A stretch of DNA of 64,000 bases from a virus: IMG/VR virus record IMGVR_UViG_3300010938_000004, positions 1 through 64,000 of that record, one strand, 5' to 3'. The notes under the pieces were generated by a model, which did no database searches, had not been told where the DNA came from, and saw only the letters and a list, made by a program, of their open reading frames with translations. Below, one piece after another: positions 1-42,342 of the stretch; position 1 is the first letter of the stretch, and each line of letters starts with the position of its first letter. Position numbers and translations under genes: made by a program.

Positions 1-234
1 CACCAAGGCACTTTAGCGAAAGACACAGACCCTAATGTCCGCCGGTACCTTGCCCGGAACACGTCTCTACACGAAAAACACCAAGGCACTTTAGCGAAAG
101 ACACAGACCCTGATGTCCGCCGGTACCTTGCCCGGAACACGTCTCTACACGAAAAACACCAAGGCACTTTAGCGAAAGACACAGACCCTGATGTCCGCCG
201 GAACCTTGCCTGGAACACATCCTTACACGAAAAA
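1..234 (+). repeat. 78-bp coding tandem repeat, at least 3 copies (26-aa HEAT/LRV-like repeat)
   Basis: Units 1-78, 79-156 and 157-234 are nearly identical and translate HQGTLAKDTDP(N/D)VRR(Y/N)LA(R/W)NTSLHEK. Confidence 0.95.
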
Positions 235-1800
235 TACCTACACGCGCTGGCGCAGGACTCGCACGCAAACACAGCGGAGGCAGCTAAACGGCAGCTCAAG
301 TCTAGGGGGCTTTTGAAATCCGATTCTCACCAAAGTGAGAACGAGTCTCAGATGCCCCAGCACCAAGCTCCCAAAGCCGAATTGCCGACCCGCGACCTGA
401 GCGATCCGGATGACAAAAAACGGGCTCACGTCGATGCGGCCCTCCACCACGCCGCCTGGTACGCCGGCCACCAAGGCATGCACGAGATGGATAAACACCT
501 GCCCCAGAAGATGAAAAAGTCGCTTGAGCCGGGGATGTCCTACCAGGATCTGGCCAAGGCCAAAATTTACGATTTCCAATCGAAGAGGCTGGTTGCAGAT
601 CTGCCTTCAGTTGAGACCCCTAAGAGAGGCATCGGCACCAAAACAGATCGGCCGGTTAACTTCGTACCCCAGGAGCGCTCCCCCAAGGAGGCGATAGATT
701 TTTTGCGTTTGCGATTCAAAGGACATGATGCGCTGTCTTTTATTGACACGCACCAGTGGCACGGCCACGATGAGCCGTATGTCGGCGGTGACGCAACAAA
801 CATTATGTGGCGCAAACACGAAGGCGACTCAAATCCAAAGACCGGCCATAAGCCGCGCTGGAACGAACCCCATCCTTTCCCGGTGCATCCCGACAAAGTG
901 AATCACGGCGGGACTCTCGGCAAGCGCGTTGCCACGGGCGGCGGCGAACCGTTCCCGTGGATAGACCTGAAGTATGGCGTCAGCAAGCAGATTCTGAAAG
1001 ACAACAAAGACAAGGATCTGACGATCCACACGCGCTCAGACCTCATTGCTCACGATGACTACATGAAGCATCTCACCCCGGGTAAACACAAAATCAAGAT
1101 GCACGTTATGGCCGACAACGACCGCCTGTCTCGTCAGCTGGAGCCCGGTGCTCCAAGCGTCGCGCGCCGCATGGCTGCGGCAAAGAAACTTCGCGATGCT
1201 GGCCATGACGTCACGATCGTGCACGACCAAGTCGAAGGCATCCATGGACATCCGTCAGCGGATCTTCTCGTTGGCAAACACAACGAGGAATTTGGCGAAT
1301 TTAAGCGTGAAGTGAACCAGGTCAAAACTACCGCCAAAGGCAAAGCCCGAATCAAAAGGGCGCTTGGCGGAACGATTGATGAGGCATTCCCGCAGTCCCA
1401 TGGCCCCAGGCTCGTGAAGGCGATCTTGCAGGCCAAGTCCGACCTTTTGAAGGCCAAGATCTACGACCTAAAGACCAAGGAGAAGCTGGCCGATCTGCCC
1501 TCCACGCAGACTCCCAAAGAAGGGGTTCCTGTAGTGCGCGACGGCAAGAAAGAGATCGAGACCAAGACTTACGTGAAAGAGAAATTCAAGCCCACCAAGC
1601 CCAATAGAACCAAGCAGGGGGATGGCGACGTCGAGAAAAAAGATGACAATCAGCCGCTCTGTGAAAATTGCGGCGGCAGCGTCGAGGTGGTAGGAGATAG
1701 TCAGACGTGTGCGAAGTGCGCGCAACCATTGCGCAAGGCCGTCTATTCTATGACCTCCGGCAAACGAATCGACAAAGACCTCGATGAGTCCGATCTGTGA
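1..1800 (+). CDS. Modular (polyprotein-like) phage protein, 5'-partial: HEAT/LRV-like repeats plus a Cys-less radical-SAM(SplB/Rv2578c)-like domain
   Basis: Frame +1 is open from base 1 into the 313..1800 ORF with no stop. Repeats LAKDTDPDVRRYLARN; motif EPFPWID..IHTRSDLI..LSRQLEPGAPS..RRMAAAKKLRDAG; several LxK[SA] motifs. Confidence 0.7.
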   Translation, partial: HQGTLAKDTDPNVRRYLARNTSLHEKHQGTLAKDTDPDVRRYLARNTSLHEKHQGTLAKDTDPDVRRNLAWNTSLHEKYLHALAQDSHANTAEAAKRQLKSRGLLKSDSHQSENESQMPQHQAPKAELPTRDLSDPDDKKRAHVDAALHHAAWYAGHQGMHEMDKHLPQKMKKSLEPGMSYQDLAKAKIYDFQSKRLVADLPSVETPKRGIGTKTDRPVNFVPQERSPKEAIDFLRLRFKGHDALSFIDTHQWHGHDEPYVGGDATNIMWRKHEGDSNPKTGHKPRWNEPHPFPVHPDKVNHGGTLGKRVATGGGEPFPWIDLKYGVSKQILKDNKDKDLTIHTRSDLIAHDDYMKHLTPGKHKIKMHVMADNDRLSRQLEPGAPSVARRMAAAKKLRDAGHDVTIVHDQVEGIHGHPSADLLVGKHNEEFGEFKREVNQVKTTAKGKARIKRALGGTIDEAFPQSHGPRLVKAILQAKSDLLKAKIYDLKTKEKLADLPSTQTPKEGVPVVRDGKKEIETKTYVKEKFKPTKPNRTKQGDGDVEKKDDNQPLCENCGGSVEVVGDSQTCAKCAQPLRKAVYSMTSGKRIDKDLDESDL

Positions 1801-1854
1801 CATCTGAGTACCGCTAGAGAGCTTCCTCATGGTCATCCCGCCCGCAAGGGCAGC

Positions 1855-2277
1855 ATGCTTCTTGTGGGGGCCCAAAATTGGTTGAGGGCTCATGGCGCTC
1901 CAGTCCAGACACACGACATCCATCTATTGTTTCATCCACACTCCGCTCCGCACTGGACAATCGGGGCTGTGTCGATTGATCGCAAATCTGGCAAGGCGCT
2001 GTATCACAAGGCCGAGCACTATGACATCAACGAGGCCCATAAGCAGCTTTTGACTAACATCAAATCGGATCTTGAGGCGGGCAAGGGTCACGATGTCTCT
2101 GAGCATCAGCGAAGGCTTTTGGACAACTCTATCTACAGAATGGGCAAGCTTTCCCATAGGGACATTTTGGGCCTTGAGCCATATGAGACTAGTGGGCACT
2201 CTGAAAGGCTGTATGCGGAGAATGGGAACCCTGGTTATAAGCAACCTGGGCGAATACCTGGTAATGAATCGAAATGA
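1855..2277 (+). CDS. Hypothetical protein; same frame as 1..1800, separated by one TGA
   Basis: Frame +1 is open from 1801 to 2277; His-rich like the upstream protein. Confidence 0.55.
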   Translation: MLLVGAQNWLRAHGAPVQTHDIHLLFHPHSAPHWTIGAVSIDRKSGKALYHKAEHYDINEAHKQLLTNIKSDLEAGKGHDVSEHQRRLLDNSIYRMGKLSHRDILGLEPYETSGHSERLYAENGNPGYKQPGRIPGNESK

Positions 2278-3035
2278 GCAAGAAGATACTCAACTTGCTG
2301 CGCGCGAAGTCAGCTCTTTCCCGAGCCATGGCTGGCGAGCTGAGTGACTTCGTGAAATCCAAAAACGTCCGCGAGAAGACTCGCAATATCACGCACGCAC
2401 AAGCCGACGCTCGTCGCGAGCAGTATGCTAACAAACTAGGCCTGAAGGTGGAGCAGATGTATTGGAATAATCCCGCTCATTATGATGAAGATTTAAAAGG
2501 AAACAAGTACCCAAGGGCGCACGGCAGTAAGCTTAGAGTTGGCGGCCTCTTCGGGGTCGACCACGAATTGGCACATGCGATGATGACGCCTGAGGGGCGG
2601 ACCGTTCGTCAGCACCAGAAGTTCTTAACTGACAATGCCTCTTATGATGATGAGAAAGATTACAGGACGCTGGGTGAGCATGGCCATTCTCATGTCAGGG
2701 CGGTTGACGCAGAAAACATTGCTCGGGTATTGGAAGACAAGATTGACCGACGTGCTGGCGTTAGAAAGCCCAATGCGTTCCGCAGTCGCTCAGCTATTGA
2801 CGACAAGAAACATTTCGATACCTCAGCTCAACAGATGCCCGCCGATGGGGCGGGTGGAGTAGAATCGCTGATGGGTCCCGATGAAGGCTCTGAGGACTAC
2901 CACCGGCGCATCTCTGAAGAAGCCTCCCGCATAGCGCGGCAGTTCGACGAGGGTTTGAAGACCTTCAAGCGCGGCAAAGTTGTGGCGCGCGAGACCCTCG
3001 ACACTAAGATCAGCCAACGAGTCAAGAAAGGGTGA
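2274..3035 (+). CDS. HExxH zincin-like metallopeptidase-domain protein
   Basis: DHELAHA with a downstream E (DAENIA); ATGA overlap with the previous ORF. Confidence 0.55.
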   Translation: MSKKILNLLRAKSALSRAMAGELSDFVKSKNVREKTRNITHAQADARREQYANKLGLKVEQMYWNNPAHYDEDLKGNKYPRAHGSKLRVGGLFGVDHELAHAMMTPEGRTVRQHQKFLTDNASYDDEKDYRTLGEHGHSHVRAVDAENIARVLEDKIDRRAGVRKPNAFRSRSAIDDKKHFDTSAQQMPADGAGGVESLMGPDEGSEDYHRRISEEASRIARQFDEGLKTFKRGKVVARETLDTKISQRVKKG

Positions 3036-3154
3036 GGACCTGGCCAAGTCTCCATTCGTGAGTTATGCGTACGATTCGGAATTTCACGTCGAGGAGCTGG
3101 GAGAGCACAAGGCAACCGTGAAACACAAAGGATAAGGATATACGATCCATCGCT

Positions 3155-3523
3155 ATGGAGAAAATTGATGGCAACCATTGGACTCATTACGCCATTACTC
3201 ACGACGACAGGCCCAAAGCAGCCCTCTGTTATGTCCATTATTTACCACGACCCAGAGAATTACACCGATCGTCTCGGCCGACTGTCGCTTACTTATTCAC
3301 GTCAGAGAAGCACCGGGGCAAGGGGATGAACACAGCCATTCGCTCCCTGACCTTGAAGGGCCACAACGTACTGACCAGTGATACGTCCTTGACCCTTGAC
3401 TCCCAGAGGCAGCGGGAACGTTTCGCCCGCAAGTCAGGGGTGCGCGCCAAAATGGGCTTGATAGGCGATGAAGATCAACATGTTATAGCCCTAAAAGGCA
3501 AACGGCCCAAGAAGCCTCACTGA
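3155..3523 (+). CDS. GNAT-like acetyltransferase
   Basis: YLFTSEKHRGKG acetyl-CoA motif; LTSDTSLT resembles LSSDFALS of the second GNAT in 14348..19105. Confidence 0.55.
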   Translation: MEKIDGNHWTHYAITHDDRPKAALCYVHYLPRPRELHRSSRPTVAYLFTSEKHRGKGMNTAIRSLTLKGHNVLTSDTSLTLDSQRQRERFARKSGVRAKMGLIGDEDQHVIALKGKRPKKPH

Positions 3524-3577
3524 TCAACCACTTACAACCTACCTCGACGGACGACTTTGGCTGGGTATGATCTACCT

Positions 3578-4006
3578 ATGCCCAGGTACTGCAAGAACCT
3601 TGAGTGGCTTCGCCCGTTTGTAGAGGCGGCAGCCAAAAAGCGACTCTTCCCAGCTCACAGGCTGGTGCGGGTCCGCGGCTATCGCACCTCCCTTGGCAGG
3701 GAGGAGTCTCAGTACGGTTCGTGCGCCTGGGAAGGACCGTGGTTTTACGTAAATCTCCGCACCCACGTGAAGATACCCTCCACCGGGCGACGCAGGTGGT
3801 ATCATCGGCCGTGTAGAGCCAGTACAATTCTGGGCTTTTTGGCGCACGAACTATCCCACATGACACATAAGGACCACGACGCCGCTCACCTGGCCCTTGA
3901 GGCTCGCATTCTTGCGGTATTCGCAGCCACCGCTCACAGGCTGGGGGTGCGCGACCTCTCGGCCCATTACGATCGGGTCCGTCTTGACACAAAGCGTAAA
4001 AACTGA
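3578..4006 (+). CDS. WLM/SprT-like HExxH metallopeptidase
   Basis: LAHELSHMTHKDHD; ATG 3578 lies 6 nt after TATGAT. Confidence 0.55.
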   Translation: MPRYCKNLEWLRPFVEAAAKKRLFPAHRLVRVRGYRTSLGREESQYGSCAWEGPWFYVNLRTHVKIPSTGRRRWYHRPCRASTILGFLAHELSHMTHKDHDAAHLALEARILAVFAATAHRLGVRDLSAHYDRVRLDTKRKN

Positions 4007-4096
4007 GACGATTTACTCTTAACAGGAGGAGTGATGAAGGATCGGCCGTCACCACCTTCATGTGGGCTGTCGACTGGAGACGACAGGGGAGGGATC

Positions 4097-4357
4097 ATGA
4101 AAATCAATTACTACAAGGTTAAGCTGAGTCAGGGCGAGACAGTCGTCCGCGCGATAAGCCAGCAAGACGCCGAGCGCTGGGGAATGGCAGAGTTCGGTCG
4201 GTCGAGCCTTGTGTCGGCGGAGTTGGCCACAGACAAGTATATGGAATGGGTGAAAGCTATGGGTGGAATTATTCATCTCACTACGCGCGCTGTTACAAAC
4301 GCGGAGGTCTGTGTGAAAAGACCATGCAGATCCTTGAGAAAGAAGGCCCCCAAGTGA
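4097..4357 (+). CDS. Hypothetical protein
   Basis: RBS GGGAGG before ATG 4097. Confidence 0.5.
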   Translation: MKINYYKVKLSQGETVVRAISQQDAERWGMAEFGRSSLVSAELATDKYMEWVKAMGGIIHLTTRAVTNAEVCVKRPCRSLRKKAPK

Positions 4358-4983
4358 GTGACTCATACATCAAAGTCCAGGGTTTGCCTAAGATGACGCC
4401 CAAAAGGGCGATGTCTCTTCATAGGAAGCTTGGCGTCGCCCTGGACAAGTTGAGCTGCCGCATTGATGCTCAGCATGAGCGCATGCGCTTTGGCTTGTCA
4501 AAAAAGGAGTTAGGAGAGTTTTCTCAATTGCTCAATGACATGGTCGAAGCGTTGCGCCAGCCTGGATGGCCCAAAGATGGGGCGGTGTCTCAGTTTGGTG
4601 TGTCAGCCTCATACAAACGCTTGACCATCAAGATTGCAGCTAAGGATGAGCAGTTCATGTGGGTGAACGTGTTGCTAAGTGGGCCACATCCAGTGGATGA
4701 GTTGGGGCGTACTCATATGGGGCCGCAGTTTTCATTGCGGTTTAGCGATCAGCTGATCGCGATCTTTGGTGGTCTTCCTGGATTTAGCTGCACCGAGCCG
4801 TGGGGCGGGGGTACGTATCAGAGCGCCATATTGAAGGCTGAAGTCGGCAACATGCCAAAATCGCTAGTGGTGGCTGGCAATAATTACGCTGACTCTGAAA
4901 CGCCGGTCGAAGCGCTGAACAAATTTGATGAATGGTTCAATAAAGCGCTGCGTCGCGTGCGCAAACAAAGAGAGCGTAAGTAA
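4354..4983 (+). CDS. Hypothetical protein
   Basis: GTGA overlap with the upstream ORF and TAATG coupling with the next. Confidence 0.55.
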   Translation: MSDSYIKVQGLPKMTPKRAMSLHRKLGVALDKLSCRIDAQHERMRFGLSKKELGEFSQLLNDMVEALRQPGWPKDGAVSQFGVSASYKRLTIKIAAKDEQFMWVNVLLSGPHPVDELGRTHMGPQFSLRFSDQLIAIFGGLPGFSCTEPWGGGTYQSAILKAEVGNMPKSLVVAGNNYADSETPVEALNKFDEWFNKALRRVRKQRERK

Positions 4984-5432
4984 TGCACGACCTGGTGTGT
5001 GCCATAGCGACAGGCCTGGTCACCCTCTACACGACGCAGGCGCAAGAGCTTAGGGCGCTCTCGTCGGTGGAGTCTGCCTTCGGGTCGAACATGAACCACG
5101 CCCTCATCCTGACCGGCATCCACGCCGGCACCGCAGCCGGAGGGCGATACGGAATCATGCCCAAGACCGCCCGCCCTGTGATGTGCCCGCAGCACCCCGC
5201 CTGCCACAGCGACCTGGCTATCGCTCAAGCTTTGACCCAGGACTCGGTGCTGGACCATCATGTGGCAAAAGTGTTGTGGTCGAAGCTTAGGCAGACGAGG
5301 CCCGCGCTGCGCTCCGCGGCAGCCTGGTACTACGGCCCAGCCTGGGACCCCGAGAAGACTGACGAGCAGGTGTGCGCTTCTCCCTACGTGCGCAACTACG
5401 CTGAGGCACTCCTCAAGGAGGTTGCTCGATGA
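4983..5432 (+). CDS. Lytic transglycosylase (SLT/lysozyme-like) domain protein
   Basis: SVES catalytic-Glu motif, AGGRYGIMPKT, AAAWYYGP and terminal YVR resemble SLT motifs. Confidence 0.55.
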   Translation: MHDLVCAIATGLVTLYTTQAQELRALSSVESAFGSNMNHALILTGIHAGTAAGGRYGIMPKTARPVMCPQHPACHSDLAIAQALTQDSVLDHHVAKVLWSKLRQTRPALRSAAAWYYGPAWDPEKTDEQVCASPYVRNYAEALLKEVAR

Positions 5433-5899
5433 CACCCCTATCTTTTGGTTGGCACCCTGGCAGCCAGCTGGAACTCAACGCATACATAGAGAGACTGTTC
5501 CAGCGTAATTTCGATGTGATGTTAAAAATGGATGTGTGCCAGTGTGCCACGTGCGCTGCTAGAGATCTCCAGTTTCCCGCGGCATCTACATACTCGGCGC
5601 TTGATGCCATTTATGTACGGCCATCTTCTGACGTCTACTCTGTCCTGTACAATTTTGTTCAGCACGCCGCTCTTGGCGCCGGGGGCAGATATCGCCGAAC
5701 CGACTGGCGCTTATCTCTGAATAGAGCTACTTTTAAGCAGGACCTTAACCGGTTGCTGTGTAGTTTGGCCGCTTTTGAGATGAAGCCGTGTAAAGTGGAT
5801 GAACATCGGGAGTTTTGGAAGGAGCGGGAGCGGAAATGGGAACACGTAACGATCGCCCTATCTTTGACTTCTGCGGTCCTTGATAGGACGGGAGGATAA
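5429..5899 (+). CDS. Hypothetical protein
   Basis: RBS AAGGAGG, ATGA overlap. Confidence 0.55.
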   Translation: MTPLSFGWHPGSQLELNAYIERLFQRNFDVMLKMDVCQCATCAARDLQFPAASTYSALDAIYVRPSSDVYSVLYNFVQHAALGAGGRYRRTDWRLSLNRATFKQDLNRLLCSLAAFEMKPCKVDEHREFWKERERKWEHVTIALSLTSAVLDRTGG

Positions 5900-6237
5900 A
5901 ATGGACTATCCTTTTAAGCATACGAAGTTTCAGCCATCCATGGAAGAGTGGCGCCGCCCTAAGTGCGGCATGGACCATGGGGTGTTTACCATAGAGACCG
6001 GCTGCGTCGGACCACACACTGCTTCACGAAGAGGATGGCGTCTATTGCCGCAATTGCGAGTATATATAGGTGACGGGCGCAGGGTGGCATAGGCCATTAA
6101 GCGCAAGTTGGACAAGGCCCAGCGAGACGCGGGGCTGGTTACCTGCCCACACTGCAAAGGATCTGGCAAGGTTCCTAAGGGTCAATAGTTGGGAGGTGGC
6201 CCTTGATAACGTGCGTTAGATGGTGTACCATCTAAAA

Positions 6238-6474
6238 ATGCGAAACTTACTCGCAAGCCGGGTCCTAACCCTACTACTCCTGACGATGACTGTGGCCGCA
6301 TGCGGCCACGTGTACGTTGGTGACTATCGAGATGCATATAGGACGCAAGTTACCTGCAGCGAAGAGCCTCGCCACGGGAATCCATTCAGTAAGTCTCCCG
6401 ATAAGGGGATGTGCGAGATTAGGCTGGTGCCTAAGGCATCGTGGTACGGCCCAGATCGCCCCTCCAGGGACTAG
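6238..6474 (+). CDS. Small lipoprotein
   Basis: Signal peptide with lipobox VAAC; TTGATA-17-TACCAT promoter ends 6 nt before the ATG. Confidence 0.5.
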   Translation: MRNLLASRVLTLLLLTMTVAACGHVYVGDYRDAYRTQVTCSEEPRHGNPFSKSPDKGMCEIRLVPKASWYGPDRPSRD

Positions 6475-6500
6475 CGCTCGGCGCGTGGTATAATTTATTC

Positions 6501-7349: not shown

Positions 7350-7615
7350 TACAAAGAAGCGCCCGCCTTTAAGGCGTGACTGTTGTGCATATCGAACGCA
7401 TGAGTGGCTAAAATCGTCTCAATCTTACGAAGCAAGAGCCATCCGCTAAATGTGCCGTAGTTTACCCGCCGCCCATCGCCTATCTCTACAAATCAGACTC
7501 CAGGCACGAGGCGCCTTAAGGCGGCATCGCAACTCTTCAGACGGATCGTCTACATATATGTCAAAGCGCCAGTGGTCGCACTCCTGTGGTTTGCTGCTCT
7601 CGGTGAAGAACATGG

Positions 7616-13394: not shown

Positions 13395-14351
13395 ATGCCT
13401 GACGATCCTAATAATCTGAATCTTCCCAACCACTTCTCTATGGTCTCTTCTCACATACCCGGCAAAGGTGACAGACACGACGAACTACTGCAGGTCCTTA
13501 AGGACGCCGGCTACTCTCCCATCGACACCCAAGGTTCTTGGCAGGGGATAACCGAGAGGGTTGCGGTGGTTCCGCACTCTGGTAGCATACAGAACATGTC
13601 CGACATAGAGAACGTGGCTCAGAATTTCGGCCAGGAGGCCGTGCTGCACCACTCCCATGGGCGCTCCTACCTCTCTCCTCTTACCGGCGGCGTGCTGCCG
13701 GCTGAAGGAGCAGGCTGGGTAGAGGCCAAGGATGGAGAGGATCACCTAAAGGTGGGGAACAAGCGAGTGCGTTTTCATCTCAATGACATATATGATTCGG
13801 AGAAGATCGCCAAGAGCCTTATCGACCGCATCCGTCACCGATGGGTGCCGGCCGCTGCCGCGATAGATCCGCTGCAAGGCCACAAGACTCGCCATTACGA
13901 GTTTGAAGATGGTTGGGCCGGGACGGCCTATCGAGTGAAGCTCCACGATCGCGATGGCGAAATAGTCGGCATGGCCTCTTATCACAAAGTACCCTCAGGT
14001 CTGTTCGAGGAGCGACACGTCTTCACCCACCCGAAACTCCGCGACAAAAAGGCGCTGGCGGTTCAGAGAATGCGCGAGCGCGCCGCTCAGCTGACTGGCG
14101 GAGCGGACATCCTTCACAAGGCCAAGGCCCCTTCGGACCAAGAATTTATCTTCAGTGTTGAGTCGCATCCCAAAGAAAATCGGGTCAATGTGGTGGCGAA
14201 ATCTGATTCGGGCCCTCAAGCCTTGGTTGAGCTTGAGAAGACCGACGACGGCTACCGAGTATTGTCCTACGTGTCCAACGCTCCAGATGAAGAGCTAAGG
14301 AAGAGCTTGCTCTATTACGCCGAAAACGAACTGGGCAGCATAGAAGAATGA
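13395..14351 (+). CDS. Modular hypothetical protein with xK[SA] motifs
   Basis: TGGTATACT 6 nt before the ATG; IAKS and LHKA separate three segments. Confidence 0.7.
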   Translation: MPDDPNNLNLPNHFSMVSSHIPGKGDRHDELLQVLKDAGYSPIDTQGSWQGITERVAVVPHSGSIQNMSDIENVAQNFGQEAVLHHSHGRSYLSPLTGGVLPAEGAGWVEAKDGEDHLKVGNKRVRFHLNDIYDSEKIAKSLIDRIRHRWVPAAAAIDPLQGHKTRHYEFEDGWAGTAYRVKLHDRDGEIVGMASYHKVPSGLFEERHVFTHPKLRDKKALAVQRMRERAAQLTGGADILHKAKAPSDQEFIFSVESHPKENRVNVVAKSDSGPQALVELEKTDDGYRVLSYVSNAPDEELRKSLLYYAENELGSIEE

Positions 14352-17300
14352 ACTCTCACCCGCATATCTATCCGTGGCATGATGGGCACACGACGCACTA
14401 TCAGCTCGCCAAGGGCGAGGAGCACCCGCATGTTAGCGCCCATGGTCCAGTGAATGACCAGGCCGGCGGGAACGAATCGGGCCTGGCCCACGAGATCCTT
14501 GAGCACTATGGAGCGCTCTCGCCAGGTAAGAAGACCAATCTGAAGTTTTACGGCGGATTGGAAAGCATAGAGCATAAGGTGGACCAGCACCTAAAGGACG
14601 CCGGCTACTCTGTCTATTACGCGGGCGGTAAGCATGGTAAGCCCGAACTGGCCTCTAAAAATTACAACACCAAGCACCTGATGATCTATGACCCGACGCC
14701 CGAGTCAGGCGGTGACTTTGGCGATGAGGCCTTCACTCGAACCTGGAGAAAGCTCCACGAGAAAGCCCACGCCGACACTTACGGCGAGGTCAATCGGCAG
14801 TTCGGTGAAGGGCGCCGTCTGGGAAAGCTGGGGAATCGCACCCTCAACGAGATGCAGCGTGCGGTCTACTGGGAGCACCTAGCAGCCCATCGCCAGCGCG
14901 ACCTGGCAAAGCAAATGGGCTACACCATGTCAGATCGAGACTTCGCCCGTGAGTACAACACGGTAATTGGCGATGCGGTTCATCGGGCTATCACTGGAAA
15001 ATTCACCGACCCCGCCGACTTGGGCTTTGAGCCACACGACAAGATGGTACCTATCTCCCATGCGATGTCGGCCCTTAAGGCACAAGCTGATAAACTGGGC
15101 CTGCGCCATGAGCACGATACGCTCCAGGCGGCCCATAGTGAGCTGAAAAAGGACCTTTCTAAGACGCGTGGTCACTCAAAACTTCCCCAATGGGCTAAAC
15201 AGGGTTATCGATTCAAGATCGATCCGCCAGAGAAGCCTTCGTACGGCACACCCGACTACGTTGACGCCCATCATTACGTGAAGACTGGTAAGATGCGCCG
15301 GTTTAGCCATCTTAATAAATCCGTTCTCGCTAAGTCCCCTTTTGGAGATGCGCCAAGTAAGACTCTGCCCTCTACGAGTCGTACTCGCTATCACGACTAC
15401 ACCTCTGTCCTGCCCGAAAAAGCCCGCCAGGAGGGTTACACGATCACCGTGGTCGACTCTTCCGGCATTGACCCGGACCGCGAAAGGTCTTACTTCCAAG
15501 CGCGCATACATCATCCTTCCGATCGGAGCATTCATGGCTGGCTGACTGCAGTCCACGGCAGCAAGACGGGCAACTTGTTTACGATCCACGACACCGCTTC
15601 CTTGGATAAGGAACACCGCGGCAAGGGCCTTGGGCGCGCGATGTACGAGGCGCTGTACCACCATCTAGTGAAGAACGGCGTCCACCATGTGGCTGGCGGC
15701 CTACACACCAAAGAGGCTCAGAGGGTTCATGAGTCGATAGCGCGCAAGCATGGCATTACCATTATGGGCGGTAGGGGTGAAAGCTATTTTTACAAGCTGC
15801 CAATCGCAAAATCAGAATACCAGTCGCTAAACAAGAAGGAGCCCGATCACATCGGCCTCTACCATCTAAGTACGGTTGCCGGGCTGAAAACAATTCATCC
15901 CGACCGCATGGGCACGTCAGGCGTAAAGGCCGAGGAGTACAAGCGGGGCCTGCCCGAGGTCGGGCGTGCGTACTTTTATAGGGATGGGCATGAAGCTGAG
16001 CCTGTGGTGCGAGACGCATCTAAGGTTGTGTACCGAACATCTGTTGACTCGGCGAGCTTGTACGACATGGGCGAGGATAAATGCGGCCACGTGGCCTCCG
16101 CGGTAAAAGAGAATGCCGGCGTTTGGAATCCGGACCGGGTGTACTCGAAAATTCGCGCAGCTGGCTATAAGGGCGTGTATAATTCGCAATCTCGCCTGCC
16201 ACATGTAGTGGCCATGCTGCATCCGGTAGAGGTCCATCACGAGGAGGAGCTGAAAAAGTCCAAGGTCCAGCCCGAGAAGCTGAAAAAATCCGAGACCAAG
16301 GGTCCGAACTGGCGCATGCCGACCGTAGAAGACCTGCACGAAGAGTATAAGACCGAGCGTGGTTTTTTCGAATGCTGGCCTGAAGAAAACCACGTCGATG
16401 TGCCGTCAGCTGAATCCTTCGCCGCTGGCGCGTTAAAGCACGGCCGCATCGAAACGATCGAGTACAAGGATATCAAGTCTAAATTCGATGATCACCATTC
16501 TATCGAAGACGAATACATGGGCGAGCGCGTTGGCAAACTAAAAGAAGCAATGGATTCCGGTGCTGAACTGCCGATGCCGGTGGTTTTCCAGACCCAAGAT
16601 CCGACTTCCACATACCATCACCGGTACATCAATCTCGGCGGCCGTACTCGAATCGGGGCGGCTCTTGCCGGTGGCCATCACGTCAAGGCTCTTGTTATCC
16701 CGTACCCGGAAGAGGGCGAGCCTCTTTACTCGCCGGCCCTGAAGAAGTCCGAAGACAAACCAGCAGAGACTAAGCGCCAGAAGAAGCGCTCGTTCTACGA
16801 GCAGATCGTAGAGGAGAACTACAAAAAGCAGAAGGTGAAGCCTCACTATTTAGGACGGGTTGGCGATATGCACGTCATGATCGCCACCCATCCAGATCAT
16901 GACAATCTCATCGGCCACCATCACTATGCTGAAGATGCCCACAATGCGATGCGACAACTTGAGGGAGCAGCAGGTCAGGGATTTCGCACCTTCATTATGC
17001 ACGGTCCGAAAGCGATGGATGTGGCCAAGGAAATGGGCTACGCCTCCGCTCTTCCGGAAGAGTCCAAGAAGCTGAAGAAGTATGACTTGGCAAAGTCTCC
17101 GCCCGTTGCGGCCTTCGATTCAATCGAACAAGCAGACGACTGGGACGCGCATAATCAGCCCCGGTCAATCTATAGGCCGGGCTACCACACTGTTAAAACT
17201 ACGAAGGTAGGGATGTTTCGCGGAAAAGCTCTTTATCATCATGTCATTTCTGATCCGGTGGCACACAAAAAAGACGACGCGACCGTGCAGCATTTTTTAT

Positions 17301-19105
17301 CTCATCACGCAGATCCGTCGAAGCGCGGCATCTCGCACATTAGCGGAGAAACCTACAAAGGTACCCTGCAGGTGTATGCCAGCAATACAGACAGGCGTTA
17401 TCGCGGGATGGGCCTTGGTGCCAAGCTGTACGATCTGGCAGCCAAACATCACGGCAGCCTAAGCTCTGATTTTGCTCTTTCGGGGGCGTCGGATGCGATT
17501 TACCGCAAGCTCGCTGAGCGGCCTGGATACAAGGCCAAGTTGCGGCCATGGGGGAAAGAGCAGGGACACTATCTTGAATATAAAAAGCCGCAGCCCAAGA
17601 AACTACGCAAGTCAGAGCTGAAGCAGTCTGAAGAAGCCCATCGCCTAGCGGATTCGTGGTCAGCAGATGGCATACCCGATGACAGAGAGGCGCTGCACGC
17701 TGAGATGGCGAAGCCAGAGAACCATGCACTGGCGCGTCAGATGCGCGATCATCTATCTACCCTAGTGCCCACTAAGGATATGAACGGAGAGCGTCATTTC
17801 CTACTGCATCGTAGGCACTCGCGACTGACTGAAAGCGCTATTACGCATGACAAGCCAACTTCTTATAGTGCGCTACCAAAGGGCCGCGTTCATGAGGTCA
17901 TGGATGGTGGATACATCCATAGCGCTTGGGTGCCCGAGAGTAAGGTGTCTTACTCTTTTCTTTACCGGGGCCATGACCCGGAAGCAGAGGTCATCGTATC
18001 GCCTGGCACTTATCAGGTGCACGAGAAGTTCTTTCAAACCTCGAACATGTCTCACCCCGTGCTGGGGCATCCCAAGAACGCATGGGACAACTACTACAGC
18101 GGCTTTTACAGCGACAAGTTTGTAAAGAAGTCCGAAGATCCCGAGCGCACGGATTCTGGCGCTACTCCTCCTGCCCTACCTGGCTCTAGCTTTCGGCCTA
18201 ACAAGGAACCACCCCCTCTGCCTGGAGACCGTGGTAAGCGTTACGCGGCGTACGTCCCTGCTAACCACCTTGCCCATCCTGCGCACTCGGATGGGCGGCT
18301 TAATCATGACTGGGACGCTTTCTATGCGGGCCCCGGTAAAGGTTACACGCACGATTCCACCCAGGCGATGAAGTTCCTTTCAGTAGAGCAGGCGCACAAA
18401 CATCTAAGCCAGCGTGGGAAGATCGATGCTCCTAGCGCTAATGACCACTACTTCGCCGAGGTGTCTGGCAAGGATCTGGAGCGTCTCGTCAAGAATGAAG
18501 GCAAGGAAGTTGCTTCCATTGCCGTAATGCGAGATGGTTGCCTCTTGATGGGGCGACGCAAGGACTCCAATCGTTGGACTTTGCCTGGCGGCCATGCTGA
18601 CCATGGCGAGGACAAGCACGATGCTGCTGCCCGCGAGTTGTGGGAGGAAGCCGGCATCAAGGCCCGGCGCAGGGACTTGAAGCATTTAGCCAGTAAACAC
18701 GTCACCACTTTCACTGGTAAGCAGAAGTGCGTACACGCTTTCTTGTACGAGCATCGGGGCGAGGAACCACACACCAAGAACGACCCGGACAATGAGTGCT
18801 ATGAGTGGAAGTTCATAGACGTGCGCGATGGACTTCCACAAGATATCAAAGAGAATCTGCACAGCCCCAACAACTTGGTTCTGGAAGAGCTAGGGCTCCT
18901 TGGAGAAGAGATCAGCAAGTCCGAAGGGGCCAATCCTCACCGCGGATGGATTCACCCCGATGGCTCATTTACTCCGATCAAGGATCACGAAGATCGTGCC
19001 GGAAGGGGGCCTGAATACCAAAAAGCCGGCCTTGAGGGGAAGCATCATGCCCATGATGCTAATGCCTTCATCCGTAGTGGTATCATCAAGCCTTATAGGA
19101 GTTAG
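14348..19105 (+). CDS. Polyvalent/polyprotein-like protein: zincin, GNAT, ART-like, ParB-like, GNAT, R-S-E ART-like, NUDIX
   Basis: HEKAH; HRGKGLG; LYHLS..GYKG; NLGGRTR; YRGMGLG; LLHR..TSYS..EAE; Nudix box GGHADHGEDKHDAAARELWEEAG. Confidence 0.85.
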   Translation: MNSHPHIYPWHDGHTTHYQLAKGEEHPHVSAHGPVNDQAGGNESGLAHEILEHYGALSPGKKTNLKFYGGLESIEHKVDQHLKDAGYSVYYAGGKHGKPELASKNYNTKHLMIYDPTPESGGDFGDEAFTRTWRKLHEKAHADTYGEVNRQFGEGRRLGKLGNRTLNEMQRAVYWEHLAAHRQRDLAKQMGYTMSDRDFAREYNTVIGDAVHRAITGKFTDPADLGFEPHDKMVPISHAMSALKAQADKLGLRHEHDTLQAAHSELKKDLSKTRGHSKLPQWAKQGYRFKIDPPEKPSYGTPDYVDAHHYVKTGKMRRFSHLNKSVLAKSPFGDAPSKTLPSTSRTRYHDYTSVLPEKARQEGYTITVVDSSGIDPDRERSYFQARIHHPSDRSIHGWLTAVHGSKTGNLFTIHDTASLDKEHRGKGLGRAMYEALYHHLVKNGVHHVAGGLHTKEAQRVHESIARKHGITIMGGRGESYFYKLPIAKSEYQSLNKKEPDHIGLYHLSTVAGLKTIHPDRMGTSGVKAEEYKRGLPEVGRAYFYRDGHEAEPVVRDASKVVYRTSVDSASLYDMGEDKCGHVASAVKENAGVWNPDRVYSKIRAAGYKGVYNSQSRLPHVVAMLHPVEVHHEEELKKSKVQPEKLKKSETKGPNWRMPTVEDLHEEYKTERGFFECWPEENHVDVPSAESFAAGALKHGRIETIEYKDIKSKFDDHHSIEDEYMGERVGKLKEAMDSGAELPMPVVFQTQDPTSTYHHRYINLGGRTRIGAALAGGHHVKALVIPYPEEGEPLYSPALKKSEDKPAETKRQKKRSFYEQIVEENYKKQKVKPHYLGRVGDMHVMIATHPDHDNLIGHHHYAEDAHNAMRQLEGAAGQGFRTFIMHGPKAMDVAKEMGYASALPEESKKLKKYDLAKSPPVAAFDSIEQADDWDAHNQPRSIYRPGYHTVKTTKVGMFRGKALYHHVISDPVAHKKDDATVQHFLSHHADPSKRGISHISGETYKGTLQVYASNTDRRYRGMGLGAKLYDLAAKHHGSLSSDFALSGASDAIYRKLAERPGYKAKLRPWGKEQGHYLEYKKPQPKKLRKSELKQSEEAHRLADSWSADGIPDDREALHAEMAKPENHALARQMRDHLSTLVPTKDMNGERHFLLHRRHSRLTESAITHDKPTSYSALPKGRVHEVMDGGYIHSAWVPESKVSYSFLYRGHDPEAEVIVSPGTYQVHEKFFQTSNMSHPVLGHPKNAWDNYYSGFYSDKFVKKSEDPERTDSGATPPALPGSSFRPNKEPPPLPGDRGKRYAAYVPANHLAHPAHSDGRLNHDWDAFYAGPGKGYTHDSTQAMKFLSVEQAHKHLSQRGKIDAPSANDHYFAEVSGKDLERLVKNEGKEVASIAVMRDGCLLMGRRKDSNRWTLPGGHADHGEDKHDAAARELWEEAGIKARRRDLKHLASKHVTTFTGKQKCVHAFLYEHRGEEPHTKNDPDNECYEWKFIDVRDGLPQDIKENLHSPNNLVLEELGLLGEEISKSEGANPHRGWIHPDGSFTPIKDHEDRAGRGPEYQKAGLEGKHHAHDANAFIRSGIIKPYRS

Positions 19106-26030: not shown

Positions 26031-27815
26031 ATGGCTCTCTCTATCACGTTTCAAGGCCAGACCATTTATCGTGCAGGCGCGTACTCGCTTACCCGAGTTT
26101 CTGACTCGGCCACCAGCTTAGCCCAACTCGGGGTTGTAGCCCTCATTGGTGAGGCGGAAGAGGGCGAGCAGATCGCTGCGACTACTTCGGTGGATGCGGT
26201 CACCTTCACTCCGGACCAGTTTGGCTCCATCGTCGAGAAGTTCGGATCTGGCTATCTGGTTGACAATGCCAAACTCGCTATAAATCCTTCCAACGATGCC
26301 GACATCTTCGGTGGCGCCCAGACCATCATCTGCCTCAAAACCAATGCTTCCACACGCGCCAGCCTGGCGCTGGCGTCGTCCTACGGGACCGTCTACGCCA
26401 AGAAGTACGGTGCGCCCGGCAACCTGACCTCGGTAACGATCACTGGCGCCTCGACGACCCGCGTCATTACGCTAGAGCGTGCGGACCTGGGCATCACGGA
26501 AGTCGGTACGGTTGGCAACGTCGCGGTGCTCACGATCCAGAATACGGACGCGGGCTCCTCGGCCGGAGTCATGTCGATTACGGCGACCCACATCACGACC
26601 ACGATCACTGGTGGCAGTTCCTCGAACCTGTCGCTTCGCAAGGCGGACTTCGCGACGATCCAGGATGTTGTCAACTATATCAACACCTTCACGAACTACA
26701 CGGCTTCGGTCGCCACGGCCGCCGAAGCTCAGTCTTCGCCCGATGTGCTCGACCGCGTCACCGGCGTGGATATCAAGACCGCGGCCTATACGGTCAAGCG
26801 CGATGCGTACGACGTGGCCCAGTTCTTCGCCGAGAGCCAGCTCGTCACCTTCACGCAGACTACCTACGCGGGCCTCCCCGCGGCGGTCGCCAAGACGTTC
26901 ATGTCGGGCGGCGCCAAGGGTGCTACGACCAATGCCCATGTGCAGACGGCTCTCGACTTCCTGAAGAAGACGAACGCGAATTTCGTGGTTCCGCTCTTTA
27001 GTCGCGACGCGACGTCAGACATCACCGATGGCTTGACGGACGCGAGTTCCACCTATACCTTCGATTCGATCACGGCAGCACTTCGGTCCCACCTCATCGA
27101 AATGGGCAACATCAAAGGCCGCAAAGAGCGCCAGGGCTTCGTGGGCTTCGATGGCACCTTCGCGAATGCCAAGATCAAAGCGGCTGCGATCGCCTCTGGC
27201 CTCATCGCCTTGAACTTCCAGCGCGTTGACGCAGTCGGGGCCTCGGGCTCTTTGGCCACTCAGAAACCGCACACCACGGCGGCCATGATTGCCGGCATGA
27301 TGGCCGGTAGTGTGGTCGGGCTCTCCCCGCTTTACAAGTCGGTCAACATCTCTGGCATTTCCACGGCGGCTTCGGACTTCGACCCGGATGCGGACGGCGA
27401 ATCCGCGATCAAGGCGAACCTCATGTTCCTGGAGAAGGACCCGAACGGAGGCTTCCGCGTGGGCAACTTCGCGTCTACCTACGGCCGCACGGACCGGAAC
27501 TGGTACTGGTCGCGTCCCGCGGTGGTGTACGCCTCGTTTGTGGCGTCGCGCTCGATCCGACTGAACCTCGAAGCCTTTATCGGCAAGCGCAACTCGGATG
27601 TGTCGCCCACGTCGGTTGAGAACTTCCTCTCGACGGTGTGCGATAGCCTACGCGCTTCGGGCATCCTAGTGGCCACGGCGGCCAACAAGGGCAGGGGCTA
27701 CACGGCCATATCGGCCAGGCTCGAAGGTAACGTCTACCGCGTGTCGGTCACCCTGACCCTGGTGGAGGCGGTCGAGTTCGTGCTGGCTGACCTTACGGTT
27801 GTCCGGGCGTCGTAA
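26031..27815 (+). CDS. Tail sheath protein
   Basis: N-terminal ITFQGQTIYRAGAYS..ALIGEAEEG; GGAKG; H..EMG..KER; sheath-type C-terminus; 594 aa. Confidence 0.85.
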   Translation: MALSITFQGQTIYRAGAYSLTRVSDSATSLAQLGVVALIGEAEEGEQIAATTSVDAVTFTPDQFGSIVEKFGSGYLVDNAKLAINPSNDADIFGGAQTIICLKTNASTRASLALASSYGTVYAKKYGAPGNLTSVTITGASTTRVITLERADLGITEVGTVGNVAVLTIQNTDAGSSAGVMSITATHITTTITGGSSSNLSLRKADFATIQDVVNYINTFTNYTASVATAAEAQSSPDVLDRVTGVDIKTAAYTVKRDAYDVAQFFAESQLVTFTQTTYAGLPAAVAKTFMSGGAKGATTNAHVQTALDFLKKTNANFVVPLFSRDATSDITDGLTDASSTYTFDSITAALRSHLIEMGNIKGRKERQGFVGFDGTFANAKIKAAAIASGLIALNFQRVDAVGASGSLATQKPHTTAAMIAGMMAGSVVGLSPLYKSVNISGISTAASDFDPDADGESAIKANLMFLEKDPNGGFRVGNFASTYGRTDRNWYWSRPAVVYASFVASRSIRLNLEAFIGKRNSDVSPTSVENFLSTVCDSLRASGILVATAANKGRGYTAISARLEGNVYRVSVTLTLVEAVEFVLADLTVVRAS

Positions 27816-35143: not shown

Positions 35144-35167
35144 GATTCCTCCTTGTTCTTCCTGTTC

Positions 35168-38656: not shown

Positions 38657-38721
38657 GCCTCTGTATCATCAAAATCTCGCGCGAGCGCGCTATGAAGCGT
38701 CTCGCCCTTTTTGTGATCCCA

Positions 38722-39424: not shown

Positions 39425-39460
39425 CTGTGCTGTGAGACAATCGAACCGTCAAGAGGTTCT

Positions 39461-39970: not shown

Positions 39971-39988
39971 GGCGGAAGGAAGTAACTT

Positions 39989-40519
39989 ATGATCTCAGCG
40001 AGTGACGCGTTCAATGCCATGATGAAGGGAATCCTGTCCCCTCAGGAAGCCCTCACCAAGGTGAACAAGGCCGAGAAAAACAACCTCATCAAGGCCATCA
40101 AGATGGCGCAAGAGCGGTTGAAAGCCATGGCCTCCGAAGATGGAGATGCTATCGCCGCGGGCTACGAGCTTCAGAAGATGAGCCAGCAGCAGCGTTCGCG
40201 CCATCCGGGACCCAGGCCGCAACACGTGCAGTACGGCGAACAGTCGGGTCCGATCTTCACGGATCTGGGCGACTTCTCTCGCCAGGCCCAGCAGTGTGGG
40301 CGGGCTCCTGGTGCGTTCTTCAAGAATGAAGAGTTCGCTATGTGTGGGGATGATCCCATTCCTACCGAGAACAACGGCCTGACCTACCCGTCGTTCGCGC
40401 AGCAGCGCGTAAACCACGGCGGTAAGCCCTATGACTGGAGCAAGCTCCCCAACAAGCCTGCAGATGTGGGCTGGGAAGCTTTCAGTCACTCCAACCAGGG
40501 AAGGGTCAGTTACCGGTGA
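39989..40519 (+). CDS. Hypothetical protein
   Basis: RBS AAGGA; contains VNKA, LIKA and FFKNE motifs. Confidence 0.6.
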   Translation: MISASDAFNAMMKGILSPQEALTKVNKAEKNNLIKAIKMAQERLKAMASEDGDAIAAGYELQKMSQQQRSRHPGPRPQHVQYGEQSGPIFTDLGDFSRQAQQCGRAPGAFFKNEEFAMCGDDPIPTENNGLTYPSFAQQRVNHGGKPYDWSKLPNKPADVGWEAFSHSNQGRVSYR

Positions 40520-42342
40520 GCCACAAAAAGATCAAAGACACGCTCGACAAGATCCGGTCGCAGCTCCTGAAGAACTATTCGCCCTACAAGATCGGCGAGA
40601 AGTTATCTCACCCGGCGATGGGTATGGTCAGCGTGGTCGGAGTCAATTCCGATGCCGAGCATCCTCATTACGAACTGTCCGACGGCAAGCAGAAGGTAAA
40701 GATGCCCTGGGCTAAGTCGAAGAACCTGCGCCCGGTACTTGATGCTGCCAAGGCCGAGATCATCAAGCAAAAGCTTGACGCTCCGCTTACCCATGACGAC
40801 TTGCGTCAAGGCGCGCACCGCGCCGTGGCCCACTTCATGGAAGATGTCCACTCCAATGACCCCGAACGCGTTGTGGTGGCTGTCCGCCAGCTGCGGGCTA
40901 AGAAGGCCCATCTTGGACTGACGCTGGGCGAGCATGCAATCTTGAACCAGGCACACACGATGATCGCTCGCGAGTATGAGAACGCGACCGGCCAGCGCGT
41001 TGCCCCCCTATCCAAGAGTCAGGCATGGAGCTACGATTCCCTGGAGAAGAGTAAAAAGGACTTCAAGGTAGGCAGTTACGCCCTGCATCAAAGCCATGGC
41101 ATCGGCAAGGTGATCGAACACAAAGAGGTCAACGGGCAGCGGTTCCATGTGCTAGAAATCGAAGACGGTGGGGCCCCTAAGAAGGTGTTCACTGGAGTCG
41201 AGAGACTTCGCCCTCCCATGTCCAAGGAAGAGGCAGCCAAGGTTAAGGAGGCGTATCATGCGCCACTTACCTTGGACGATCATTCACCCGAGATGACTTG
41301 GAACAGGCGCTATCGCGATCTCATGGAGATGACGCATGGCAACGAACCCATGCAGCAAGTAAAAGCCATCCGGCAACTTAAGTCCCTAGCTAACTTCAAG
41401 GATCTGTCGTTCGGCGAGCGCAAGCTGCTAGAGCAGAACGTCCGGGCGCTGGGCGCGCACTACAAAATTGCGACTGGCGAAGATCTGGACGCTCCGCCTC
41501 CCGAGGACAAGCCCACGCTGAAACTTGTCAAGCACGAGGCCATCCAGGCCTTGCTTAGCAAGTCGGATGAAGAGCACAGCCCGGAAGACGAGGACATCTA
41601 CTTTCACCCGTCAGGGCCGCTTGGCTTTAAGACTTCCGTGTCAGCTGGCGGCAAGCACCTGGGCGAATTCAGCTCTAATGATGAGGCAGAGGCTGCCGCA
41701 CGTGAATGGACCAATCGGTCTAATTTCTGGCCCAATGTTTGGCGCGTGTCTGACCATGGCAACTATCACCTCGCAAGCAAGGACTTTTACTCGCACCCGG
41801 ACTTCCAGCAGCCTAAGAAGGAAGACGTCAAAAAGTCTGAAGACCAAGGAGAAGGGGCCAAGATCATCAAGCTCCCCACCCTCTACACGCCTCCGGCTGA
41901 GGAACACATTCCGCTGGTTGAACTTGAGAACGAGCTTCACTACCACCTTCATCGCGCCGCGTCTCATGACAATATGGCTAAGCTTCTGGAGATAGCGGCT
42001 GAGACTCTCTACCGCAAGGGCGACCAGATGAGTGGTCACAAGGTCACGGCCGAGAAGCGGGCACACGAGACCGCCAAGGAAGCTCACCAAAGAGCGGCTG
42101 AGAAGACTTACCGGTCGATTGGTGTGTCGGACAAACAGCAGCCTCTGGGCGCCCTTTATCGCAGTCATGTCAGTGAGGGTGGCAAGTTGCTGACAGTGAA
42201 GTACGAGCCTAAATTTGAGCCGTACCAGCCGAAGGTGGAGAAATCCGAGCGCCCGGTGCTGAAAGAGGGCGAGAGCTACTCCTCGCTGCGTAAGCGGGAG
42301 AAAGCAAAGTCCAAGGGTGTCTGTAAGGATTATTCCAAGTAA
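40516..42342 (+). CDS. Modular protein with two CarD/CdnL-like domains
   Basis: FKVG..HGIGKV..LRP..WNRRYR..LSFGERKLLE, preceded by a degenerate copy; xKS(E) linkers. Confidence 0.75.
   Translation: MSHKKIKDTLDKIRSQLLKNYSPYKIGEKLSHPAMGMVSVVGVNSDAEHPHYELSDGKQKVKMPWAKSKNLRPVLDAAKAEIIKQKLDAPLTHDDLRQGAHRAVAHFMEDVHSNDPERVVVAVRQLRAKKAHLGLTLGEHAILNQAHTMIAREYENATGQRVAPLSKSQAWSYDSLEKSKKDFKVGSYALHQSHGIGKVIEHKEVNGQRFHVLEIEDGGAPKKVFTGVERLRPPMSKEEAAKVKEAYHAPLTLDDHSPEMTWNRRYRDLMEMTHGNEPMQQVKAIRQLKSLANFKDLSFGERKLLEQNVRALGAHYKIATGEDLDAPPPEDKPTLKLVKHEAIQALLSKSDEEHSPEDEDIYFHPSGPLGFKTSVSAGGKHLGEFSSNDEAEAAAREWTNRSNFWPNVWRVSDHGNYHLASKDFYSHPDFQQPKKEDVKKSEDQGEGAKIIKLPTLYTPPAEEHIPLVELENELHYHLHRAASHDNMAKLLEIAAETLYRKGDQMSGHKVTAEKRAHETAKEAHQRAAEKTYRSIGVSDKQQPLGALYRSHVSEGGKLLTVKYEPKFEPYQPKVEKSERPVLKEGESYSSLRKREKAKSKGVCKDYSK

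Follow-up and report, generated by a model that had tools for sequence, protein, structure and literature searches.

A lysine-containing motif shared by the head module and the large His-rich proteins of an environmental myophage: a candidate prohead-protease cleavage code for effector polyproteins

The first 64,000 nucleotides (nt) of the virus record IMGVR_UViG_3300010938_000004 (the whole stretch analyzed, hereafter the window) encode large His/Lys-rich proteins in which a four-residue motif, h-x-K-[S/A] (h = L>I,V,M), recurs, and the question raised by this locus is what the motif does there. The first-pass annotation of the window had taken it for a genome-wide processing or packaging code that lets captured domains plug into virion cargo. 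Our analysis favors a narrower answer, namely that the motif would be a prohead-protease cleavage code which punctuates shuffling effector polyproteins. We consider this the best explanation as a whole and would place its probability a little above even. The source contig is 132,520 bp long, and since its ends share 111 nt, the 132,409-bp genome must be circular or circularly permuted; the window is its first 64 kb. The gene set is that of a myophage: the window encodes a tail sheath protein (26031-27815) and baseplate proteins (48652-59119).

The motif was scored as [LIVM]xK[SA] in a proteome of 177 greedily called open reading frames (ORFs; 42,547 aa). All 13 instances listed in the first-pass annotation were found. 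LLKS 310, MKKS 511, LAKA 550, LVKA 1411, LLKA 1444, and LRKA 1729 lie in the ORF at 1..1800 (plus strand), which is the C-terminal 599 aa of a 1265-aa multi-module protein whose ORF begins at genome position 130412 and runs through the junction of the circular contig. IAKS 13806 and LHKA 14112 lie in a 318-aa ORF (13395..14351, plus strand), together with two sites that had not been listed, VAKS 14193 and LRKS 14295. LSKS 41008, LEKS 41041, LSKS 41554, VKKS(E) 41827, and VEKS(E) 42235 are the five sites of a 608-aa ORF (40516..42342, plus strand). A 1585-aa ORF (14348..19105, plus strand) carries ten more. The His/Lys-rich composition was likewise borne out: His makes up 5.7-7.4% of these proteins vs 2.4% of the proteome, and Lys 6-11%. 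Selecting ORFs with at least 5% His and a length of at least 300 aa returned exactly these four candidate cargo proteins, so that the set can be defined without the motif. Three of the four are basic (pI, isoelectric point, 8.7-9.0; median 6.9), which matches the expectation for DNA-associated head contents.

The whole proteome contained 123 motif instances vs approximately 93 expected, a number reached in one of 500 shuffles. The excess sits in six proteins: the four His-rich proteins and, in the head module, the scaffold and the protease. The observed and expected numbers were 14 and 3.2 for the 1265-aa ORF (Poisson 7e-6; 6 vs 1.55 for the part inside the window), 4 and 0.64 for the 318-aa ORF, 10 and 3.5 for the 1585-aa ORF, 5 and 2.1 for the 608-aa ORF, 7 and 1.06 for the scaffold, and 3 and 0.87 for the protease. 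When the four His-rich proteins were pooled, 33 sites were found vs 9.4 expected (p 1.7e-9). The remaining 171 ORFs contained 80 sites vs 82 expected; the signal is thus confined to six proteins, and the description of the code as genome-wide had to be abandoned. The claim that the motif is much rarer in the tail proteins stood only as a statement on density (1.6 vs 8.7 per 1000 aa). In the tail/baseplate block (43880..62462, plus strand) the motif is at its composition expectation, and this block and the sheath gene at 26031..27815 together contain 11 sites vs 11.3 expected in 6760 aa. There is no avoidance, and the low density follows from a Lys content of only 3.6%.

The count of so short and degenerate a motif could simply result from Lys-rich composition, from internal repeats, and from a motif chosen post hoc, with no function behind it. 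Four of the 14 sites of the 1265-aa ORF do belong to one repeated element, and the proteome-wide excess is small. However, when the six proteins were shuffled in 10-, 15- or 30-residue windows, approximately 12-13 sites remained vs 43 observed, and none of 1000 shuffles reached 43. Permuted residue orders of the motif gave 9-25 sites, and the stricter hxKS[ED] gave 15 vs approximately 1 expected, with 0-1 for its permuted orders. With the four-copy repeat counted once, the 1265-aa ORF still had 11 sites vs 3.2. The enrichment also recurred outside the original reading, in 49 homologous polyproteins and in 26 of 28 related loci, as described below. Lys content alone, which the first-pass annotation had named as the explanation that would dispose of its proposal, does not account for an excess that survives local shuffling.

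The annotation had also suggested running MEME on the proteome. We carried this out as an exhaustive scan of approximately 48,000 three-residue patterns at six spacings. L.KS ranked first in the four His-rich proteins (14 vs 1.69, p 3.7e-9) and, independently, in 24 scaffolds from related phages (59 vs 6.0), where L.KA ranked sixth. Proteome-wide, L.KS was not singled out: it ranked 112th (31 vs 17) after removal of a pentapeptide-repeat protein, L.K.E and DL.K being 7th and 11th. MEME on all proteins together would probably have missed the motif. The protein removed is N-S-G-rich, is encoded on the minus strand at genome 112728-113765, and dominates the proteome-wide scan (SG..N 35 vs 8.8).

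The residues and codons at the sites were also compared. The Ser:Ala ratio at P1' was 22:11 in the cargo, 139:77 in the relatives' scaffolds, and 28:46 at the chance sites elsewhere in the proteome (Fisher p 0.007); the cargo sites thus resemble the scaffold sites in preferring Ser over Ala and in preferring Leu. Across clades, the choice of Ser or Ala at P1' covaried between scaffold and cargo as a trend only (Fisher p 0.0098 for cargo, 0.16 for scaffolds). The codons at the sites are diverse, which points to selection on the peptide. A recombination scar, in which the sites would be conserved as DNA, was ruled out by the same codon diversity. The shuffles, the permuted orders, the pattern scan, and the recurrence in homologs and related loci make an origin in composition and chance very improbable.

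The head genes lie outside the window. The portal gene is at genome 95145-97076, a candidate prohead protease gene at 102444-103073, a scaffold-like gene at 103703-104488, and the gene for the major capsid protein (MCP; phrog_752 match) at 104511-105983, the protease gene thus being positioned between the portal and the scaffold/MCP genes. Over 93% of its length, the MCP shares 28% identity with its SPO1-type counterpart. An AlphaFold2 (AF2) model of the protease candidate, built on 24 orthologs, had a mean confidence (pLDDT) of 81. VIA-align matched it to T4 gp21 (5jbl_A; Z 11.0, root-mean-square deviation (rmsd) 2.8, 124 aa) and to the assemblin of varicella-zoster virus (VZV; 1vzv_A; Z 10.2), the next unrelated row having Z 5.1. 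In Foldseek, ranks 1-35 were all herpesvirus maturation proteases (assemblins), with a best E-value of 3e-3. As modeled, the protein encoded at 102444-103073 has the T4 gp21/assemblin fold.

Alignment of the 24 protease orthologs showed that D19, E23, H47, S124, E126, G127, and K128 are invariant. Of these, H47 and S124 are the candidate catalytic His and Ser. Also invariant are K5, in an N-terminal L.K[SA], and K166-S167, which immediately follow the catalytic domain and precede a stretch with pLDDT <50 in the model. Two invariant sites thus bracket the catalytic domain. At the N-terminus of the MCP, L22 and K24 are invariant in 29 sequences and are followed by T or A, so that Thr also occurs at the last position of the motif in the capsid protein.

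The same pattern was found in relatives. Approximately 95 metagenomic MCP relatives were recovered, many of them on contigs of 110-170 kb; a scan of IMG/VR with the single MCP sequence found no relative, and an alignment was required. In 26 of 28 related IMG/VR loci, the ORF upstream of that for the MCP, the protease ortholog, or both contained 4-13 sites vs approximately 1-2 expected. The gene order protease-scaffold-MCP was kept in the related loci in which a protease ortholog was found, and in SPO1. In SPO1 itself, 11 sites, every one of them K-S, were counted in the scaffold gp3.3 (0.9 expected) and 5 in the protease gp3.2 (0.9 expected). Residues 20-24 of its MCP read ALNKA, and its portal carries two N-terminal sites, LSKA at 7 and LEKS at 31. 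In a third clade, whose MCPs are only 28-30% identical, QALLKALEAG occurs at the MCP N-terminus and the scaffolds are motif-rich. The concentration of the motif in the scaffold, the protease, and the MCP N-terminus, here, in the related loci, and in SPO1, supports the part of the first-pass annotation that called it a processing code. We conclude that the motif is probably the cleavage consensus of this prohead-protease lineage.

The ten sites of the 1585-aa protein (nt 15311, 15326, 15803, 16250, 16280, 16739, 17087, 17603, 18122, and 18911) are all h-x-K-S, with Ser at P1' in ten of ten, and delimit modules of 324, 159, 149, 153, 116, 172, 173, 263, and 61 aa. The domains detected by Pfam are all placed between motif sites. 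A GNAT acetyltransferase core (15596..15727, plus strand; PF00583, 22.9-28.5 bits, cut-off 20.7) lies in the 159-aa module at aa 330-488, and a NUDIX hydrolase domain (18512..18838, plus strand; PF00293, E 1e-16) in the 263-aa module at aa 1262-1524. The conserved N-terminal module contains the sequence HEKAH (HExxH; 14756..14770, plus strand). In its AF2 model pLDDT was >90 for approximately aa 50-260 and <60 after approximately aa 275, confidence falling after approximately aa 270, at LSKT, LNKS, and LAKS sites. The N-terminal module of the neighboring 318-aa protein (aa 2-141) showed a weak SAM-lyase-like match. In most homologs this module and the HExxH module are joined in a single protein, whereas here it has a gene of its own; the stop codon of 13395-14351 overlaps the start codon of 14348-19105 by ATGA (14348-14351). 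Since both parts form one ORF in most homologs, the two genes represent either a fission or a translationally coupled pair.

The HExxH module raises the alternative that this zincin-like module, or some other protease, cuts the polyproteins at the motif in the cytoplasm or after injection, and that the prohead protease has no part in the cargo. H137, E138, H141, and E154 are invariant in 31 sequences, the module is family-defining in 49 homologs, and its best, though weak, structural match is the antirestriction protein ArdC (6sna_A; Z 5.0, rmsd 6.5, 128 aa). Domain release by embedded peptidases has moreover been proposed for polyvalent proteins (PMC5512222). On the other hand, the fold searches with this module were below the reliable range: the best Foldseek E-value was 0.13, with nothing under 0.1, VIA-align gave Z 5.0 at most, and there was no Pfam match. 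Moreover, the motif fills the scaffold, the protease, and the MCP N-terminus in G004 and G005, two related genomes without a polyprotein homolog; the SPO1 head-module proteins show the same pattern; and the 1265-aa and 608-aa proteins contain sites and have no detectable homology to the HExxH module. We therefore regard processing of the cargo by a protease other than that of the prohead as unlikely.

The 608-aa protein is encoded just upstream of the tail/baseplate block, and its five sites give modules of 167, 11, 171, 91, 136, and 32 aa. A CarD-like module (41062..41451, plus strand) consists of CarD_TRCF_RID (aa 183-231) and CarD_C (aa 254-312) matches, bracketed by K178 and K349, and both exceed the Pfam cut-offs (PF02559, 25.1 bits, cut-off 23; PF21095, 48 bits, cut-off 23.1). 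A second CarD_C match at aa 102-157 was weak (E 0.0019). Only three homologs of this protein were found, too few for a conservation test.

In the 1265-aa protein, a Cys-less radical-SAM-like module (559..1419, plus strand) lies between the sites at K852 and K1139. The Pfam match covers profile positions 47-145 only and, at 28.7 bits, is below the cut-off of 29.5; no full-length profile match was obtained, and the module has zero cysteines and so no CxxxCxxC cluster motif. Stand-alone homologs of 197-279 aa exceed the Pfam cut-off, and the module is widespread and mobile, being found in proteins of 128 to 2933 aa. The protein also contains four copies of an element of approximately 22 aa, L.KA-KIYD[FL].[ST]K..[VL]ADL. 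The third copy (550..615, plus strand, end approximate) starts at a motif site and stands at the head of the radical-SAM-like module, the fourth is at 1444..1510 (plus strand, end approximate), and two further copies, outside the window, are at genome 131222 and 131342. In seven remote homologs (P0155-P0159, P0161, and P0192) the element is again at the N-terminal edge of the radical-SAM-like module, often directly after a VKKSE site, and it could be a targeting or docking tag.

Tandem 26-aa (78-nt) repeats of the form HQGTLAKDTDP.VRRYLARNTSLHEK occupy positions 1..234 (plus strand, end read by eye) and also genome 132300-132520, spanning the contig junction. The 111-nt terminal overlap lies within them, which leaves the number of copies in the 1265-aa ORF uncertain. 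A 71-aa stretch is common to the 1265-aa protein (aa 138-208, genome approximately 130823-131035) and the 1585-aa protein (window 18209-18412), with 42% identity. Just after the 1265-aa gene are two small ORFs, 1855-2277 and 3155-3523, with 9.3% and 7.4% His, respectively, and zero motif sites; in the latter, residues 49-120 are similar to the 1585-aa polyprotein at its residues 1014-1085 (32% identity, E 1.6e-6).

To what extent the sites coincide with module boundaries in evolution was examined with the HExxH module, which recruited 49 large homologs of 872-2562 aa. Their Pfam domain sets differ and include NUDIX, GNAT, PI3/PI4-kinase, SAM lyase, topoisomerase IB, SLT, and several DUFs, and module order and partners vary, the NUDIX domain being C-terminal here and N-terminal in P0101 and P0141. 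The 49 homologs contained 343 sites vs 138.8 expected. When the 1585-aa protein was compared with its homologs by BLAST, 40 of 104 internal homology ends were within 10 aa of a site, vs 12.3 by random placement; the corresponding numbers were 6 vs 6.3 for the reversed motif and 3 vs 3.9 for h-x-R-[SA]. The results support the claim that captured domains plug in, and an absence of module shuffling at the sites in related phages, which would have spoken against it, is not what we observed. Phages whose MCPs are only 28-30% identical have HExxH modules with 45-56% identity, which points to transfer of the polyprotein between head lineages.

The motif in the cargo could also be an uncleaved docking or linker element, the proteins remaining full-length; in that case, and if they are packaged, the motif would be a code for targeting and not for processing. 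The cargo sites are in low-confidence, linker-like stretches, the motif is often found within K/E/S-rich linkers such as LKKSKVQPEKLKKSE, and the virion RNA polymerase of phage N4 is packaged unprocessed (PMC5512222). Yet shuffling in 10-residue windows, which keeps the linker composition, gave 13.4 sites vs the 43 observed, and permuted orders of the motif residues were not enriched. The cargo sites also share their Ser>Ala and Leu preference with the scaffold sites, and the two invariant sites of the protease flank its catalytic domain, where proteases of the T4 and SPN3US type autoprocess. We find it improbable that the motif serves as a docking or linker element which is left uncut.

According to the cleavage reading, which we prefer, the motif would be the recognition and cleavage consensus of the capsid-maturation serine protease in an SPO1-like head module. 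The 1265-, 318-, 1585-, and 608-aa proteins would be co-assembled into the prohead and cut there by the protease, probably after Lys, into pieces of approximately 90-290 aa that correspond to the HExxH, GNAT, NUDIX, CarD-like, Cys-less radical-SAM-like, and SAM-lyase-like modules. The position of the scissile bond after Lys is suggested by analogy and by the Lys|Ser site of HK97. The pieces would stay with the DNA and be ejected into the host as early takeover or anti-defense effectors. The specificity of the protease would be conserved across a wide group of head lineages; a flanked domain would for this reason still be processable after transfer, and modules and whole polyprotein genes could thus move between phages. 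In our estimate it is about as likely as not that these four proteins are packaged and that they are cut at the motif. More tentatively, we suggest that in a broad and largely uncultivated group of SPO1-headed myophages the prohead protease may serve as a polyprotein processor and the motif as a shared interface for the exchange of effectors; any domain flanked by the motif could then be added to a giant, head-packaged polyprotein and be released as a separate injected effector. Such phages would have a DNA-virus equivalent of the polyprotein strategy of RNA viruses, with the capsid-maturation machinery in charge of it. The proposal of a packaging code was not supported: the results give no evidence of packaging directed by the motif, the virion location of the four proteins being a prediction. 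By eye, the four proteins had no N-terminal sequence in common, and no N-terminal targeting sequence was identified in them; the repeated L.KA-KIYD... element is a candidate capsid-targeting element.

Several observations weigh against cleavage of packaged polyproteins by the prohead protease. Cleavage, the scissile bond, and packaging in this phage are predictions from sequence. The cargo genes sit outside the head gene cluster, and the conserved HExxH module of the polyprotein itself could be an alternative processing enzyme. To our knowledge, prohead-protease substrates mostly lose a single propeptide, and dicing at as many as 14 sites is not known among them. The protease candidate and six orthologs had no Pfam or PHROG family match, and sequence searches against the PDB gave no match with the single sequence and only spurious (histone) matches with a profile. 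The enrichment in the protease and that in the 608-aa protein were each non-significant singly (p 0.06 alone), and the proteome-wide rank of L.KS given above points in the same direction. Among the 49 homologs, the reversed motif was also above expectation (181 vs approximately 139), so that part of their excess reflects local composition, and 10 of the 49 had little or no excess (e.g. 3 vs 4.5 in P0105 and 3 vs 4.8 in P0117). Since the homologs are mutually related, both the breakpoint and the enrichment counts are non-independent and inflated by relatedness. Homologs of the radical-SAM-like module were weakly enriched, with 220 sites vs 156.5 expected and 206 for the reversed motif. Finally, in the complete or near-complete relatives G001, G004, and G005 (overall counts 132 vs 106, 122 vs 87, and 109 vs 84, respectively) strong enrichment was found only in the scaffold and the protease; G004 and G005 gave no match to the polyprotein, and the 903-aa polyprotein homolog of G001 has only 4 sites vs 2.1 expected.

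Comparison with known systems shows which parts of the arrangement have precedents. In HK97, the gp4 protease cuts off the delta domain of the capsid protein after Lys103 (Lys|Ser), and thus has Lys at P1 and Ser at P1', as proposed here, and belongs to the same protease fold superfamily. We know of no scaffold protein and no internal cargo in HK97. The internal proteins of T4 lose one short N-terminal targeting peptide, whereas as many as 14 sites, placed between domains, occur in a single protein here. The protease motif of the giant phages has Glu at P1 (A-x-E).

T4 gp21, whose fold the protease model shares (5jbl_A, Z 11.0), cleaves at I/LxE (PMC12991175), a motif common to the scaffold, the capsid protein, the protease, and the injected internal proteins (the capsid-targeted IPI-III and Alt). 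The motif found here is similar in having three positions with an aliphatic P3 and a fixed P1, but P1 is Lys instead of Glu, and the protease sequence families differ, as the protease here has no Pfam or PHROG match. Injected phage enzymes that modify the host, Alt being named among them, have been described (PMC5512222).

Among the giant phages, the SPN3US protease gp245 processes nine head proteins at a three-residue motif in which Ser is preferred at P1', and it also trims off its own C-terminal propeptide (PMC10052503). In phiKZ, 201phi2-1, and SPN3US, the protease motif has been used to predict and confirm head substrates, cleavage within propeptides takes place at several copies of the motif, and many of the internal proteins are ejected (PMC10052503). 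The preference for Ser at P1' is seen here as well. Cleavage in those phages, however, removes N-terminal propeptides of 20-254 aa and does not separate enzyme domains (PMC10052503). The virions of the giant phages have been characterized by mass spectrometry, whereas the present phage is known from its DNA alone.

Polyvalent proteins, described by Iyer, Burroughs, Anand, de Souza, and Aravind in 2017, combine 2-15 unrelated conflict domains in highly variable architectures, are predicted to be packaged and injected, and were likened by these authors to RNA-virus polyproteins (PMC5512222). The GNAT, NUDIX, CarD, and HExxH modules and the variable partners in the 49 homologs resemble them. In comparison with the metallopeptidase (MPTase) domain of polyvalent proteins, HExxH and E154 are invariant here and the fold match to ArdC is weak (Z 5.0). 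The difference is that embedded peptidases are proposed there, 'prohead' occurring only in the reference list of the part of the paper that was accessible (PMC5512222), whereas here the punctuation matches the consensus of a head-module protease.

The closest likeness of the head module is to that of SPO1-like (Herelleviridae-type) phages, in MCP homology, in gene order, and in h-x-K-S/A in gp3.3 (scaffold), gp3.2 (protease), and gp6.1 (capsid protein). The present phage and its metagenomic clade are nevertheless far from any deposited phage; a distant blastn search with window positions 1-7900 and 40001-47900 against 50,697 deposited phage records gave no DNA match. In the open-access papers searched we found neither a published h-x-K-S/A consensus for SPO1-like proteases nor punctuation of polyvalent proteins by a prohead protease. 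What differs here from the known systems is thus the Lys-type consensus of an SPO1-like protease, its use at multiple sites between enzyme domains, and the coincidence of these sites with recombination breakpoints.

If the cleavage reading is correct, a four-residue signature would provide a sequence readout of head cargo and cut positions in a large environmental myophage clade; internal cargo of this kind can otherwise be revealed only by proteomics. It would link the prohead-protease substrates of T4- and phiKZ-type phages with the polyvalent proteins through a concrete release enzyme and site, and would explain the rapid shuffling of effector modules. It would also yield a catalogue of candidate early takeover or anti-defense enzymes (CarD-like, GNAT, NUDIX, SAM-lyase-like, PI3/4-kinase-like, and topoisomerase IB-like). 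The consensus can be checked in cultivable SPO1-like phages.

Some further genes were noted near the head genes. PHROG annotation of ten further small or neighboring ORFs gave one weak match to a family of unknown function and otherwise nothing. Between the protease and the scaffold there is a conserved 150-aa ORF (genome 103215-103667), kept in the eight closest related loci with 38-47% identity, for which no family match was obtained and which contains zero motif sites. Between the portal and the protease, a 616-aa protein (genome 99076-100926) matches PHROG 1745, 'DNA transfer protein' (E 3e-86), and its gene is adjoined by that of a 2OG-Fe(II) oxygenase (genome 100874-101773).

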